NCBI RefSeq assembly: GCF_003018255.1
Contig: NZ_CP027440.1
Reading direction: 5' to 3' (one strand)
DNA from: Escherichia coli
GTDB lineage: Bacteria > Pseudomonadota > Gammaproteobacteria > Enterobacterales > Enterobacteriaceae
Length of the DNA: 64,000 bases
A program made the position numbers and the translations under genes. Shown here one piece after another: positions 24,171 to 54,510 of this stretch. The notes under the pieces are model-generated. The model saw only the letters and a list, made by a program, of their open reading frames with translations, was not told the origin of the DNA and did no database searches. Each line of letters opens with the position of its first letter. Positions within the stretch are counted from its first letter, which is position 1.

Positions 24171-24198
24171 TTATCGGCAAGGAAGGGGGAAACTTTAT
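24171..24198 (-). promoter_or_regulatory. Sigma-28 (FliA) class 3 promoter of the tar-tap-cheRBYZ operon
   Basis: Minus-strand reading gives TAAAGTTT-N11-GCCGATAA, a perfect match to the sigma-28 consensus, about 40 bp upstream of the tar start. Confidence 0.85.
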
Positions 24199-24226
24199 TG
24201 CTGATGCCACCCGCCGCGAAACTGAA

Positions 24227-24255
24227 ATAAAAAACCCGATGCGCAGATCATCGGG
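24227..24255 (-). terminator. Rho-independent terminator downstream of cheW (end of the motAB-cheAW operon)
   Basis: Stem cccgatg (24235-24241) / catcggg (24249-24255); the A-run on the plus strand is a T-run after the stem on the minus strand. Confidence 0.75.
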
Positions 24256-24283
24256 TTCATTGCAATTGAGGAAATCGGGAGAA

Positions 24284-28655: not shown

Positions 28656-28688
28656 AAAAAAAAGCAGCGGTACGTCGTTACCGCTGCT
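28656..28688 (-). terminator. Rho-independent terminator downstream of flhC (end of the flhDC operon)
   Basis: Stem agcagcggta (28663-28672) / taccgctgct (28679-28688); the plus-strand A-run 28656-28663 gives a T-run after the stem on the minus strand. Confidence 0.7.
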
Positions 28689-28713
28689 GGAATGTTTCGC
28701 CACACCGTATCAG

Positions 28714-29292
28714 TTAAACAGCCTGTACTCTCTGTTCATCCAGCAGTTGTGGGATAATATCGGCAGGATTCTGGGAAAGTTTACGTCTTTTTACTGCCCG
28801 GGATGGCGGCTGACATAAGCTGCAGGCAAAGCTGCCAACAGGCTGGTGAGCGTGGGTAATAAAATTGCCGCCGCAGCAGTTGCAGCTGGAAAGTTGCAGT
28901 AATCCACTTTCAACAAACCGCACCAATGTCCAGGCACGGGTTAATGCCAGCAGCGGTCCCTCTTCTGCTTGCGGGCACTGTTCAAGGTATAAACGGTAGG
29001 CTTTGATCACCGCATCGACGCCATTACACAAACCGGTTTTCAGTAAAAACTGCCATGCGTTACAGAACATCGAAGCATGAACGTTTTGTTCCCAGGTCAT
29101 AAACCAGTCGGTTGAGAATGGCAGCATGCCTTTCGGCGGTGGGCTTCCGCGCAGTTCTTTATAGAGTTTTATCAGGCGTCCGCGACTTAACTGTGTTTCG
29201 CTTTCCAGCATCTGCAAACGAGCGCCCAGGGTGATCAATTCCATTGCCAGCTGAATATCCCGCGCTTCCTGAACAATGCTTTTTTCACTCAT
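28714..29292 (-). CDS. flhC: Flagellar master regulator subunit FlhC
   Basis: 192 aa, [27 protein letters not shown]; zinc-binding Cys cluster near the C-terminus. Confidence 0.98.
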
Positions 29293-29294
29293 GA

Positions 29295-29645
29295 TCAGGC
29301 CCTTTTCTTGCGCAGCGCTTCTTCAGGCTGATTAACATCATTCAGCAAGCGTGTTGAGAGCATGATGCCGGTATGAATTTGCTGGAGATCGTCAACGCGG
29401 GAATCTTGCGTCAACTGAGTAATCGTCTGGTGACTGTCAAAACGGAAGTGACAAACCAGTTGATTGGTTTCTGCCAGCTTAACCATTTGCGGAAGAGTCA
29501 GTGCCGCTAACGTTGTCGCCATTTCTTCATTTATGCCGAGACGAAACATAGCGGACGCTTTGTCCTGAACAATCAGACGCTGTGCAAGTAGTAAATATGA
29601 CAAGTTGATGTCATAAATGTGTTTCAGCAACTCGGAGGTATGCAT
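29295..29645 (-). CDS. flhD: Flagellar master regulator subunit FlhD
   Basis: ORF 29295-29654; start placed at [22 protein letters not shown] (116 aa). Confidence 0.96.
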
Positions 29646-30425
29646 TATTCCCACCCAGAATAACCAACTTTATTTTTATGCGGTCTCACCGCACCCCGTG
29701 ATGTCGCCGGGAAGCCCCGGTAAAAAATAATTAGCATTAGAATAGTTGCGATAAGCTGCAATAGGCAGAGCCCCTTTGTGGGATTTAATAAGTCCTTACA
29801 AATAGAAGGGGTTCTTTACACTTATCTAAGATTTTTCCTAAATCGACGCAACTTTACTCGTCACTACACGCACATACAACGGAGGGGGGCTGCGATTTTC
29901 AATAATGTGTGATGCAGATCACACAAAACGCTCAATTACTTAACATAAATGTATAAGTCATACTTTTGTTTTGGGTGTATTTCAATCTGTTAAAAAGTTT
30001 TTCGCGACGCTAGCAAGCAAAAATGAAACAGGAATAATAGAAATGGGATGTTGCGCACAGTTAAAATAACTCACCGTAAATAATCATCTGCTATAAATAA
30101 TTGCTTTAATGCAATACCAGATAAGCTATTTTTAAACAGACACTTACTGCACAACAAACTAATTAAATACAAAGAAAGGCAACAATCAACTTAATGTTGA
30201 TAAAATGTTTTACATATATTAACCACTTGTTTAATATGGAGAATCAGTACATTATTTTCTTATAATTACAGTTGAAATCATATGATCACCGAGAGTGATT
30301 GATTAATTGTATTTACTAATAATCACGCTAATATTTACCTGTTTGACTGAGTTGGGATTGCGTCGTTTCTCCATTAGGAGTAAAGCTTTAATGTCACCTG
30401 AAGTTCACAGAATAAGGAACAGGTT
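29646..30425. promoter_or_regulatory. flhDC promoter and long leader region, divergent from uspC
   Basis: About 780 bp AT-rich non-coding region between the divergent flhD and uspC starts; in E. coli it is known to carry the class 1 promoter, a long 5' UTR and many regulator binding sites; individual sites were not mapped here. Confidence 0.7.
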
Positions 30426-38180: not shown

Positions 38181-38432
38181 TTAATGGGATTCGCCCTGTG
38201 GGGTAAACTTGAGTTCAATCAGCGCGATGGCTTTTTGGATTGCCCGCATGGTGACCGGGTCTGCGGCGGCGGGATGGTTAGTAAAGTCGATATTCTTCAG
38301 CTGGCTGGACATTTTTTCACGAACTTCAACGGGCGCGATTACATCGAGAACATCCAGAATTTGTTTGATAACCAACTGGCAAGCAACCACATCAGAAACC
38401 AGTTCCTGATCGGCATTCAGCGGCTGGGACAT
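38181..38432 (-). CDS. yecJ: DUF2766-family protein YecJ
   Basis: 83 aa ORF in the conserved ftnB-yecJ-azuC-yecR neighbourhood. Confidence 0.8.
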
Positions 38433-38517
38433 CGTAAACTCCTGATAGCATTTTGAAAGCCGTTATAGTAGCGGCTTCACATCTTCAGCGATAGTCACAT
38501 CCACCGTCATCAGGACA

Positions 38518-38546
38518 CAAAAAAACCTGCCGGAGCAGGTTTTTTG
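38518..38546 (-). terminator. Rho-independent terminator downstream of azuC
   Basis: Stem acctgc (38525-38530) / gcaggt (38535-38540) with A-run before and T-run after; immediately 3' of the azuC stop on the minus strand. Confidence 0.8.
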
Positions 38547-38633
38547 TTATCGGAACATATTGCCTGGCGGTACGTCTTTGAACGTCTTGCAATAGTTATT
38601 GAACATACTTTTCAGGATTTTGCGCAGTTTCAT
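38547..38633 (-). CDS. azuC: Small protein AzuC (28 aa); its mRNA is also the dual-function sRNA AzuCR/IsrB
   Basis: Minus-strand reading ATG(38633-38631)...TAA(38549-38547) translates MKLRKILKSMFNNYCKTFKDVPPGNMFR; absent from the ORF track because it is below the length cutoff. Confidence 0.85.
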   Translation of the reverse strand: MKLRKILKSMFNNYCKTFKDVPPGNMFR

Positions 38634-38895
38634 CGCGGCACTCCAACCATTTGTTATACATGTGTTATTGTCTTTGCGCTTATAATATGACAACCATCAC
38701 AAAAATCAATCTTTATGTGATGTAAATCACATAAATACCCCTTTAATGTTATAAAAATGATAATCAAAAAGCAGCTACCCCATTTCTGACACCTACAGAT
38801 GGCGAGAAATAGCGCCTGCCAGGCGTCTTTTCCGGCCATTGTCGCAGCGCTGTAACGCGTAAAATAGTGCTTTCTTTTACTCTTCTGGCTGGACC

Positions 38896-42411: not shown

Positions 42412-42435
42412 AAAAAAACCACCCGAAGGTGGTTT
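42412..42435 (-). terminator. Rho-independent terminator of the pgsA-glyW-cysT-leuZ transcription unit
   Basis: Stem aaaccacc (42416-42423) / ggtggttt (42428-42435), loop cgaa; the plus-strand A-run gives a T-run after the stem on the minus strand, 44 nt past the leuZ 3' end. Confidence 0.8.
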
Positions 42436-42478
42436 CACGACACTGCTTATTGCTTTGATTTTATTCTTATCTTTCCCA

Positions 42479-46023: not shown

Positions 46024-46481
46024 AGGAATATCTCCAGAAATAGGGATAACGCTACTGATAGTTAGTCATTCGTATATTAGCGGTTTTTATTGCAACTTTG
46101 AAACGTTAAAAATGGTGGGTATTCGATTTTTCTCTCGTTTTTGTAAATTCGATTGTCCACAGTTATGGTCACGCCCGTCACCAACGGCTTCCGGGATCGT
46201 TTCACTGTAAGCCCTGCGATGAAATGTGACAAAAATTGACTTTATTCAGCAAAAATGAAAATCAGCCCGCTGAATATGTAACATTAATTAACCCGAACAA
46301 TACGGGCAAAAAACATTCATGATAAAAATATTTATTGGTCATTATATTAACGTATTTTATAGCACTGCCGATATCACGCTCAAAAAACAACCACTGCTAT
46401 TTTTAGCAAAGCTTATGGTATACTCCGCCGCCTTAACATTTTTCACCGCAAATTTTCATTGCAACATGACGAGGAAAATAA

Positions 46482-46706
46482 ATGAGTACGCCTGATTTTT
46501 CTACTGCCGAGAATAATCAAGAACTGGCAAATGAAGTCTCCTGCCTGAAAGCGATGCTGACGCTGATGCTGCAGGCGATGGGACAAGCTGACGCGGGCCG
46601 CGTGATGTTAAAGATGGAAAAACAGCTTGCGCTGATCGAAGACGAAACCCAGGCTGCAGTATTTTCCAAAACGGTTAAGCAAATTAAACAAGCCTACCGT
46701 CAGTAA
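46482..46706 (+). CDS. yecF: DUF2594-family protein YecF
   Basis: 74 aa ORF between uvrY and sdiA, conserved position. Confidence 0.8.
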
Positions 46707-47495: not shown

Positions 47496-47724
47496 AGTAA
47501 ACCGCAACGCCCCTGAGAGTGAGTATCATTTATAATGATAATTCAAACTATCACATAAATAAGATTTATATATAATTTATATTATTCAGGCAATGAATTA
47601 CTTTTGCAAGCCATCGCATTCTCTTATGTTATTAATGAGTTATGCTGATTTGTTAAGCAGTTTTATCACGTTTGAAGTGGCGCACCGCCCCGACAGGTGA
47701 ATCGTCGGGGCTGATTTTTTCTTA

Positions 47725-52574: not shown

Positions 52575-52597
52575 AAAAAACCCCGCCGTTGGCGGGG
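52575..52597 (-). terminator. Rho-independent terminator downstream of fliC
   Basis: Stem ccccgcc (52581-52587) / ggcgggg (52591-52597); the plus-strand A-run 52575-52580 gives a T-run after the stem on the minus strand. Confidence 0.7.
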
Positions 52598-52628
52598 AAG
52601 CACGTTGCTGACAAATTACCATTCATGT

Positions 52629-52728
<100 letters not shown>

Positions 52729-52770
52729 ATTTGGCGTTGCCGTCAGTCTCAGTTAATCAGGTTACGACGA

Positions 52771-54510
52771 TTAACCCTGCAGCAGAGACAGAACCTGCTG
52801 CGGTACCTGGTTAGCTTTTGCCAGCACGGAGTTACCGGCCTGCTGGATGATCTGCGCTTTCGACATGTTGGACACTTCGGTCGCATAGTCGGCGTCCTGA
52901 ATACGGGACTGCGCTTCGGACAGGTTGGTAGTGGTGTTGTTCAGGTTGGTGACCGCGGAATCCAGACGGTTTTGCACCGCACCGAGGGAGGAGCGGAATT
53001 TGTCGATGGAGCTGATGGCTTCGTCCAGAGCTTTCAGTGGATCGGCGGTGGTTGCAGCTTTAGTTTCAGCGTCAGTAGTAAAATTACCATCCGCTGAAAC
53101 ATAGACTGCTTTACCTGAACCATTGGTCACAGTTCCGTCTTTTTGCAAAAACAGATTGGTTGTATTATCGGTAGTCAGTGAACCATCAGCTTTGGTGTAA
53201 GCGTCTTCAAAAACTGTACCTGTGTATTGTTGTACTATACCTTTACTATCAACTTTAATATCGCCTGCGCTGGTACCAGTAGCTCCAACATCAACTGTGA
53301 ATCCTGTGGACTTAGTTGCCGATTGAAGAGACTCAGCACTCATTCTTGCATTTGCTACAGTGATTGCACCAGAAGTAGTAGCATCAGTACCGCCATCCAG
53401 AGTGAAGGTTGTTTCATCTTCAGTTGTAATTACCGTAGATACGGCACCCGGTGTGCCTGTTGTATGCCAGTTTTTAGTCAGTGCATCAAGAGTGGCTGCT
53501 TTGACAGTCCCAGCATTGTTTTGAGTGAGGTTACCATCTACGTCAATAAATAGTTCTGAACCATCTTTCGCGGTAATTTTACCGTCGCTAGCCAATACAA
53601 CGTCAATTGACGTAGAACCAATTTTAACGTTTAAGTTAGCAGTATCGCCCGCTTTTGGTGTCAGGAAGGATTGTAACTGAGCACTGTTACTATCACCAGA
53701 ATTTGTACCAGCTGCAATAGTTGCACTATATGTAAAATCACCTGTAGCGCTGTTGTATGTATAATCTGTAGCTGTTGGCGATCCAAAACCATTTGCAATT
53801 GTGGCATTAACTTTTGCGTTATTAGCCAAACTCGCAATTACATCTGCAGCTGTAGATGTTTTCAGGCCTGCGCTAACAGTATAGGTAACTGTACCATTAG
53901 CATCAGCAGTACCTGGAGCCAAGAGTTGAGCTGCTGCCAAATCAGATTTAGTCGCTGCAGTATTAGCCACAGCCCCGCCACCATTCACATTAAACCCACT
54001 CAGCCCCAGCGTATCAGAGTCAATTTTCTTCAGATCAATAGTGATAGTCTGGCCGTCATTCGCACCAACCTGAATTTTCATTGAACCGTCTTTCGCCAGT
54101 ACGTTCACGCCGTTGAACTGGGTCTGGCCAGATACGCGGTCAATTTCGTCCAGACGGGATTTGATTTCGTCCTGAATGGAGTCCAGATCCGAATCGGAGT
54201 TAGTCCCGGTAGAAGCCTGAACCGTCAGTTCACGGATACGCTGTAAGTTGTTGTTGATTTCGGACAGCGCGCCTTCGGTGGTCTGTGCAACGGAGATACC
54301 GTCGTTGGCGTTACGTGCAGCTTGAGTCAGACCTTTAATGTTAGAAGTAAAACGGTTAGCAATCGCCTGACCTGCGGCGTCATCCTTCGCGCTGTTAATA
54401 CGCAAGCCAGAAGACAGACGCTCGATAGAACTCGACAGCGCAGACTGGTTCTTGTTGATATTATTTTGAGTGATCAGCGAGAGGCTGTTGGTATTAATGA
54501 CTTGTGCCAT
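52771..54510 (-). CDS. fliC: Flagellin (H antigen); long allele with a divergent central domain
   Basis: 579 aa; N-terminal about 175 aa (MAQVINTNSLSLITQNNINKNQSALSSSIERLSSGLRINSAKDDAAGQAIANRF...) and C-terminal about 90 aa (...LAKANQVPQQVLSLLQG) are the conserved D0/D1 segments; the central part is Thr/Ala/Gly/Asn-rich and unlike K-12. Confidence 0.97.
   Translation of the reverse strand: MAQVINTNSLSLITQNNINKNQSALSSSIERLSSGLRINSAKDDAAGQAIANRFTSNIKGLTQAARNANDGISVAQTTEGALSEINNNLQRIRELTVQASTGTNSDSDLDSIQDEIKSRLDEIDRVSGQTQFNGVNVLAKDGSMKIQVGANDGQTITIDLKKIDSDTLGLSGFNVNGGGAVANTAATKSDLAAAQLLAPGTADANGTVTYTVSAGLKTSTAADVIASLANNAKVNATIANGFGSPTATDYTYNSATGDFTYSATIAAGTNSGDSNSAQLQSFLTPKAGDTANLNVKIGSTSIDVVLASDGKITAKDGSELFIDVDGNLTQNNAGTVKAATLDALTKNWHTTGTPGAVSTVITTEDETTFTLDGGTDATTSGAITVANARMSAESLQSATKSTGFTVDVGATGTSAGDIKVDSKGIVQQYTGTVFEDAYTKADGSLTTDNTTNLFLQKDGTVTNGSGKAVYVSADGNFTTDAETKAATTADPLKALDEAISSIDKFRSSLGAVQNRLDSAVTNLNNTTTNLSEAQSRIQDADYATEVSNMSKAQIIQQAGNSVLAKANQVPQQVLSLLQG

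Follow-up and report, generated by a model that had tools for sequence, protein, structure and literature searches.

AzuCR of Escherichia coli K-12 is a dual-function RNA, which is translated into the small protein AzuC and also acts, as AzuR, through base pairing (Raina et al., 2022; PMC8915982). The RNA was first predicted as IS092/IsrB, its length is given as 164 nt in K-12, and the encoded AzuC of 28 aa has been detected by tagging as well as from ribosome binding (PMC8915982); earlier work on azuC by Hemm et al. (2008, 2010) is taken here as it is cited in PMC8915982. In K-12, AzuC binds and activates GlpD (Raina et al., 2022; PMC8915982). AzuR pairs with cadA near the ribosome-binding site and with galE, repressing both, and since the pairing region is located inside the ORF, translation and base pairing interfere mutually (PMC8915982). 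The RNA is bound by Hfq and ProQ, of which ProQ counts more for stability and repression. Transcription of azuCR is repressed by CRP, and predicted CRP sites are marked upstream of azuCR in the legend to Fig. 1A of that work (PMC8915982). Under anaerobiosis, FnrS represses azuC translation by pairing 25-31 nt upstream of the ORF, a pairing that was proved by compensatory mutations (PMC8915982). The function of AzuC and AzuCR has also been summarized in a review from 2025 (PMC12612679). With regard to its distribution, the literature describes azuC as conserved in "a limited number of" or "several" enteric bacteria.

The SgrS/SgrT system of E. coli resembles AzuCR in that an sRNA encodes a small protein active in carbon metabolism, but the coding and base-pairing regions of SgrS are separate whereas those of AzuCR overlap, and the two are unrelated in sequence. 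VcdRP of Vibrio cholerae and Spot 42/SpfP of E. coli are, like AzuCR, CRP-repressed dual-function RNAs, and VcdP activates a metabolic enzyme as AzuC does (PMC12612679). Their sequences are nevertheless unrelated to that of AzuCR, and their targets differ from those of AzuCR: citrate synthase and PTS mRNAs in the case of VcdRP, and CRP in the case of SpfP.

Here we describe the azuC locus in a stretch of 64,000 nucleotides from E. coli (assembly GCF_003018255.1, contig NZ_CP027440.1), hereafter called the window, which as a whole is the yebC-fliF region of the E. coli chromosome. The locus shares with K-12 azuC/azuR the same 87-nt coding sequence and terminator, the position between yecR and yecJ, the promoter hexamers and the CRP motifs. 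It departs from K-12 AzuCR at 38661, which is A and not C (in the FnrS site), and at 38645, which is T and not C (adjoining the Shine-Dalgarno sequence); the upstream CRP site is also changed at two bases of its spacer. The features of the locus, in the direction of transcription, are as follows.

38716-38731, minus strand: upstream CRP-type site TGTGATTTACATCACA, a perfect TGTGA-N6-TCACA beginning 98 nt 5' of the ATG
38704-38709, minus strand: -35 hexamer TTGATT, from a promoter scan
38686-38701, minus strand: second CRP-type site TGTGATGGTTGTCATA, TGTGA-N6-TCATA, one mismatch to TGTGA-N6-TCACA
38682-38687, minus strand: -10 hexamer TATTAT, from a promoter scan
38517-38675, minus strand: AzuCR (AzuR/IsrB/IS092) transcript, mapped from K-12 ncRNA azuR (b4434)
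38658-38664, minus strand: FnrS pairing site, CACATGT, 25-31 nt 5' of the ATG (position from PMC8915982)
38641-38644, minus strand: Shine-Dalgarno sequence GGAG, 7 nt 5' of the ATG
38547-38633, minus strand: azuC coding sequence, 28 codons plus TAA, with the ATG at 38633 and the stop TAA at 38549-38547
38562-38593, minus strand: predicted cadA-pairing region of AzuR, AzuCR nt 83-114 with cadA -14 to +17
38519-38545, minus strand: intrinsic terminator, A6-CCTGC / TCCG loop / GCAGG-T7

Judged from sequence identity, we put the probability at about 97% that this locus is azuC/azuCR, a self-contained unit of some 160 nt flanked by yecR and yecJ, which would operate by the mechanism known from K-12. 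The minus strand at 38547-38633 holds an intact ORF of 28 codons followed by TAA, and its translation is MKLRKILKSMFNNYCKTFKDVPPGNMFR; neither a frameshift nor an internal stop is present. The first-pass annotation had named this product AzuC from the letters of the sequence, and the name is confirmed by several independent comparisons. The DNA agrees with K-12 MG1655 azuC (b4663) at 87 of 87 nt (100%, by BLAST mapping and alignment). The NCBIfam equivalog model NF033642, 'stress response protein AzuC', matches the peptide with 75.9 bits (cut-off 30, E = 1.3e-21), aligning residues 2-27 to model positions 1-26 of 26, and RefSeq annotates azuC at this very place. The exact peptide, named AzuC (UniProt AZUC_ECOLI), is present in a collection of 15 billion proteins on at least 1,000 contigs. 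A 501-nt segment around azuC has a match in 5,419 of 5,426 complete E. coli genomes, and azuC is annotated between yecR and yecJ in the RefSeq records among the matches listed. Pfam holds no family for the AzuC peptide.

A 28-codon ORF by itself is not beyond chance. The 4.5 kb between 36500 and 41000 is overlapped by 74 ORFs with a length of 20 aa or more, and the antisense ORFs at the azuC locus were dismissed as chance frames. The azuC ORF is significant because it is identical to K-12, matches the NCBIfam AzuC model and is conserved at the protein level across species. This conservation was assessed by scanning species-representative genomes with a loose back-translated pattern, in which K/R, hydrophobic, Y/F, D/E and PP positions were kept and ten codons were left free. 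The scan returned 66 loci with 17 genus names in their titles, besides several MAGs: Escherichia, Citrobacter, Klebsiella (oxytoca group), Raoultella, Kosakonia, Buttiauxella, Leclercia, Cedecea, Phytobacter, Franconibacter, Siccibacter, Superficieibacter, Silvania, Pseudescherichia, Intestinirhabdus, Dryocola and 'Enterobacter sp.'. It is not exhaustive, given that the standard E. coli and E. fergusonii representatives were not returned though the pattern matches the window sequence; the lack of Salmonella, K. pneumoniae and the E. cloacae complex among the matches is thus not readable as absence of the gene.

The homologues are 27 aa long in 60 of the 66 loci and 28 aa long in the remaining 6, and GGAG is found at -4 to -14 from the ATG in every one. 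When the window is included, the 67 loci carry 65 distinct coding sequences but just 21 distinct peptides. At codons left free by the pattern the third base varies but the encoded residue does not: Thr17 is written as ACG, ACT, ACC or ACA, Val21 as GTA, GTG, GTC or GTT, and Phe18 as TTC or TTT (the codon of Cys15 is TGC throughout the homologues). Similarly, Ile6 is always Ile though the pattern admitted L, V, M and F, Asp20 is always Asp though Glu was admitted, and Tyr14 and Phe27 are fixed at positions where F or Y was allowed. Because the coding sequences are many and the peptides few, with synonymous change around invariant amino acids, AzuC is under purifying selection across many enterobacterial genera, and this signature is free of ascertainment imposed by the pattern.

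These data bear directly on the idea that the locus in this strain yields a purely non-coding RNA, whose 28-codon frame is a chance ORF within an sRNA. Short ORFs are indeed common in this part of the window, as the count above illustrates, and AzuCR RNA does have a base-pairing function. Against this stand the retention of frame, GGAG and ATG in 66 genomes with 17 genus names, the plentiful synonymous changes beside invariant amino acids, and the tagged protein and ribosome binding reported in K-12 (PMC8915982) for a coding sequence identical to the one here; we therefore consider a chance frame extremely improbable and keep to azuC as a protein-coding gene.

It was also claimed in the first-pass annotation that the supplied ORF track misses azuC, and this is true, as the default threshold of 60 aa hides the gene. 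When the threshold is lowered to 20 aa, the mechanical ORF list gives the azuC frame as an ORF of 48 aa with a TTG start (38547-38693). Might this be the real gene? It is the longest ORF of the azuC frame, but the TTG at 38693 lies inside the promoter and upstream of the transcription start at 38675 (as mapped from K-12), it has no Shine-Dalgarno sequence, and the homologues, the NCBIfam model and RefSeq all use the ATG form of 27-28 aa. A 48-aa gene is hardly credible on these grounds, and the TTG ORF at 38547-38693 was rejected as a chance frame in favor of the 28-codon azuC that begins at 38633.

The yecJ gene starts at 38432, on the same strand and 114 nt past the azuC stop, and it is found within 150 nt downstream of azuC on the same strand in 46 of the 66 related loci. 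azuC is joined with yecJ (DUF2766, function unknown) in a conserved tandem on one strand, which in the window occupies 38181-38633 on the minus strand (related loci L005-L070). On the other side, the gap between yecR and azuC holds a further 1-5 kb in most genera other than Escherichia; in the Kosakonia locus L026 it contains an ORF of 474 aa that resembles a multi-pass membrane transporter and another of 223 aa, both identified by eye.

Upstream of the gene, the predicted sigma-70 promoter consists of TTGATT, a 16-nt spacer and TATTAT, agreeing at 9 of 12 positions, and its -35 block is conserved in the related loci. A counterpart of the upstream CRP-type site, with at most two mismatches, lies equally far from the ATG in most of the 66 loci (pattern scan). 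The second one, at -68 from the ATG, overlaps the promoter spacer and the -10 hexamer, and a site with at most two mismatches occurs at -64 to -73 from the ATG in 66 of 66; such a position, overlapping the core promoter, fits repression. The 5' and 3' ends of AzuCR in the window are taken by homology to the K-12 azuR annotation (b4434, 1987843-1988001), to which 159 of 159 nt align by BLAST with two mismatches, both in the 5' UTR. The transcript start so placed, 38675, is an A located 7 nt past the -10 hexamer. The proposal that the azuC mRNA doubles as the sRNA AzuCR is borne out by this overlapping K-12 azuR annotation and by the dual function described in PMC8915982. The ORF and its ribosome-binding site are intact, and so are the promoter, the CRP motifs and the terminator.

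The strong terminator that had been reported at 38518-38546 is accurately placed. The TAA is followed by C, A6, CCTGC-TCCG-GCAGG and T7 across 38546-38519, and the RNA folds into a hairpin of 11 pairs with -18 kcal/mol (z = -5.3; none of 200 dinucleotide shuffles was as stable). A simple consensus terminator scanner gave no call at this site, probably because A/U pairing lets the stem run on into the T tract, and direct folding detected it. A terminator of the form CCTGC-loop-GCAGG-T6+ is present within 70 nt of the stop in 65 of the 66 related loci. The stem AAAAAACCTGC/GCAGGTTTTTT (columns 153-179 of alignment A2) is near-invariant in sequence across the 17 genus names, with a variable loop and no covariation. 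As a speculation, such sequence conservation, unusual for a plain terminator, may reflect protein binding, for example by ProQ or Hfq.

Apart from this hairpin, the RNA has little predicted structure in common among genera. The fold of the whole AzuCR is not unusual (z = -1.1), and RNAalifold on 68 transcripts recovered the terminator and a few invariant short pairs only, with a covariation term of -0.51. A helix of the Shine-Dalgarno region with the 3' end of the ORF, predicted for E. coli, was set aside as it is not conserved across genera by RNAalifold. Rfam holds no AzuCR/IsrB family, and at the azuC locus no Rfam match passed gathering. Two sub-threshold matches were rejected: rsmX (23.4 bits against a gathering cut-off of 56) is essentially an alignment to the terminator hairpin and hence a terminator look-alike, and the Salmonella sRNA STnc370 (38487-38551, plus strand; 33.4 bits against 54, E = 0.08), opposite azuC, owes its alignment to the reverse reading of the terminator hairpin and is probably a look-alike too.

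Since this locus shares its ORF, terminator, promoter hexamers and CRP motifs with K-12, we infer that the K-12 mechanism would apply here; the expression and function of azuC in this particular strain would likewise follow from that identity. In this scenario cAMP-CRP would repress the sigma-70 promoter overlapped by the CRP sites, such that AzuCR would be most abundant during growth on glucose. Translation from the GGAG/ATG start would produce the 28-aa amphipathic AzuC. The same RNA, acting as AzuR, would pair through sequence within the ORF with two mRNAs, cadA and galE, and repress both, with ProQ contributing most, so translation of AzuC and base pairing by AzuR would compete. Under anaerobiosis, FnrS would pair 25-31 nt 5' of the ATG and block AzuC synthesis.

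The base-pairing arm of this mechanism was examined with K-12 mRNAs as duplex targets, as the cadA and galE genes of the strain itself are located outside the window. For cadA, duplexfold predicts a local duplex of -29.8 kcal/mol that covers the ribosome-binding site and start codon of cadA. The whole-length duplex reaches -71.1 kcal/mol against a mean of -47.4 for shuffled sequences, and 0 of 300 shuffles were as good. The predicted site inside the coding sequence agrees with the literature, in which pairing takes place near the cadA ribosome-binding site and overlaps the ORF. For galE, a crude duplex search did not reproduce the pairing site inside the ORF, and the whole-length duplexfold value was no better than for shuffled targets; a local prediction in the 5' UTR was discarded as it does not match the published description. 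The published cadA and galE pairing sequences are necessarily present in the window because the ORF is identical to K-12.

The intergenic region between yecJ and yecR differs from K-12 by 12 substitutions in 463 nt, none of which falls in the coding sequence or the terminator. The substitution at 38661 is RNA nt 15 and the fourth base of the FnrS seed site, changing CACCTGT of K-12 into CACATGT (CACCUGU to CACAUGU in the RNA). The AzuCR of the window therefore has no FnrS seed CACCUG(U/C) 25-31 nt upstream of the ATG. By duplexfold, the FnrS 5' end GCAGGUG pairs with AzuCR nt 12-18 in K-12, and the duplex predicted for the cognate site has -11.5 kcal/mol in K-12, -13.9 kcal/mol with the CACCUGC of most genera and -4.9 kcal/mol in the window. 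Of the 66 species representatives, 53 carry CACCTG at the corresponding position, and therefore the link between FnrS and azuC looks ancient. Among 5,426 complete E. coli genomes, 66 contain an exact 46-nt match with the A allele, and of the matches listed many come from poultry or other avian sources. The C-to-A change would be expected to weaken FnrS control of azuC, and we tentatively suggest, as a possibility that we rate well below even, that a minority lineage of E. coli, made up of this strain and those roughly 66 of 5,426 genomes, carries a natural azuC allele insensitive to FnrS.

The other change, at 38645, lies one base 5' of GGAG, where the window has T and both K-12 and strain 104 (the closest complete genome) have C. 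None of the 5,426 complete E. coli genomes holds an exact 96-nt match spanning this position, and for this reason the T looks private to the strain, or else may have arisen as an error in sequencing. In the predicted helix that joins the Shine-Dalgarno region to the 3' end of the ORF, the T replaces a C-G pair by U-G, and the minimum free energy (MFE) moves from -36.0 to -33.9; little weight is given to this effect because the helix is not conserved across genera.

Both changes could be read as signs that the locus is intact while its regulation has diverged, so that no AzuC is made or FnrS repression is lost. The A at 38661 is central in the 7-nt FnrS seed, with the predicted loss in duplex energy given above, and in K-12 disrupted FnrS pairing abolished repression and compensatory mutations restored it (PMC8915982); next to the Shine-Dalgarno sequence, the T at 38645 makes U-G of a predicted C-G pair. 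On the other hand, the Shine-Dalgarno sequence, ATG and ORF are unchanged, the long-range helix is a prediction that other genera do not share, the duplex and fold energies are predictions only, and duplexfold offers FnrS an alternative site over the Shine-Dalgarno region at -10.7 kcal/mol. Diverged regulation is thus possible but doubtful. In any case the change in the FnrS site touches one regulatory input and not the identity of the gene, which we continue to read as azuC/azuCR of the K-12 type.

The first-pass annotation had described AzuC as a small membrane protein. Its net charge is +6, the longest hydrophobic run is 2 residues, and there is no transmembrane stretch. The hydrophobic moment is about 0.6 in the best windows of 18-20 residues; for residues 1-20 it is 0.526, a value attained by 147 of 10,000 shuffles. 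Because of this charge, the high moment and the lack of any hydrophobic run above 2, AzuC is predicted to be a peripheral, amphipathic and membrane-associated protein rather than an integral, membrane-spanning one. AzuC is likewise amphipathic and membrane-associated in K-12 (PMC8915982). Membrane association accordingly holds as part of the earlier description, on the predicted amphipathic helix and PMC8915982, with the refinement that it is peripheral.

It had further been suggested that other intergenic regions of the window may hold similar small genes. For a census, the annotations of K-12 and of strain 104 were transferred onto the window, and the suggestion was found to hold only modestly: the window contains yecU (58 aa) and a number of known sRNAs, but no further annotated coding sequence below 60 aa. 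The small gene and RNAs located in this way or by Rfam are as follows.

46319-46495, plus strand: yecU, 58 aa, 100% identical to K-12, with a 14-nt overlap with the start of yecF
10634-10940, minus strand: MicL, known RNA
28656-28750, minus strand: MotR, known RNA
29624-29844, plus strand: AsflhD, known RNA
42412-42478, minus strand: 3'ETS-leuZ, known RNA, with three tRNAs besides
47584-47720, plus strand: SdsN, known RNA
52575-52765, minus strand: FliX, known RNA
24187-24264, plus strand: C0465, from Rfam
6656-6698, plus strand: ES036, from Rfam

The K-12 genes yecV (14 aa) and yecT were not found in the window, and both are missing in strain 104 too. WP_001302039.1, a 'hypothetical protein' of 38 aa that PGAP places in strain 104 between uvrY and yecU, was rejected, for codon 25 of its counterpart in the window (46165-46281, plus strand) is a stop in the same frame; the entry probably represents no real gene. 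A re-scan of the DNA outside long ORFs, for ATG or GTG starts with 12-59 codons and a required Shine-Dalgarno sequence, gave nine candidates. Two of the candidates lie inside yecH and yedF, and azuC alone has a terminator close behind.

Several side observations were made along the window. Part of FliX, which derives from the fliC 3' UTR, has a second copy with 84% identity near 6621-6730 on the minus strand, coincident with the Rfam ES036 match; as a guess, the two may share a repetitive element. After the stop of argS (13988) there are about 50 nt (13989-14040), followed by an ORF at 14041-14436 on the minus strand that corresponds to flhE by position. Between 29624 and 30400 there is no IS1 upstream of flhD, where K-12 MG1655 carries IS1H. 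The center of fliC (52771-54510, minus strand) is unalignable with K-12, and its two ends match at 90-94%. Past yedF, strain 104 has emrE, ybcL, ybcM and IS remnants, and the window has yedK and yedL like K-12.

The call of azuC/AzuCR in this window is correct but concerns a gene already known and annotated, and the biology of the locus in itself adds nothing new. It serves as a positive control, in which a validated 28-aa gene and its dual-function RNA were recognized from raw sequence, and it illustrates that a threshold of 60 aa on ORFs conceals real genes and that the longest-ORF rule gives them wrong starts. For the species, a minor new item is the minority E. coli lineage with a mutated FnrS seed. 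For the family, what goes beyond the literature is that azuC, the promoter overlapped by CRP sites, the FnrS site and the terminator are conserved together across 17 genus names.
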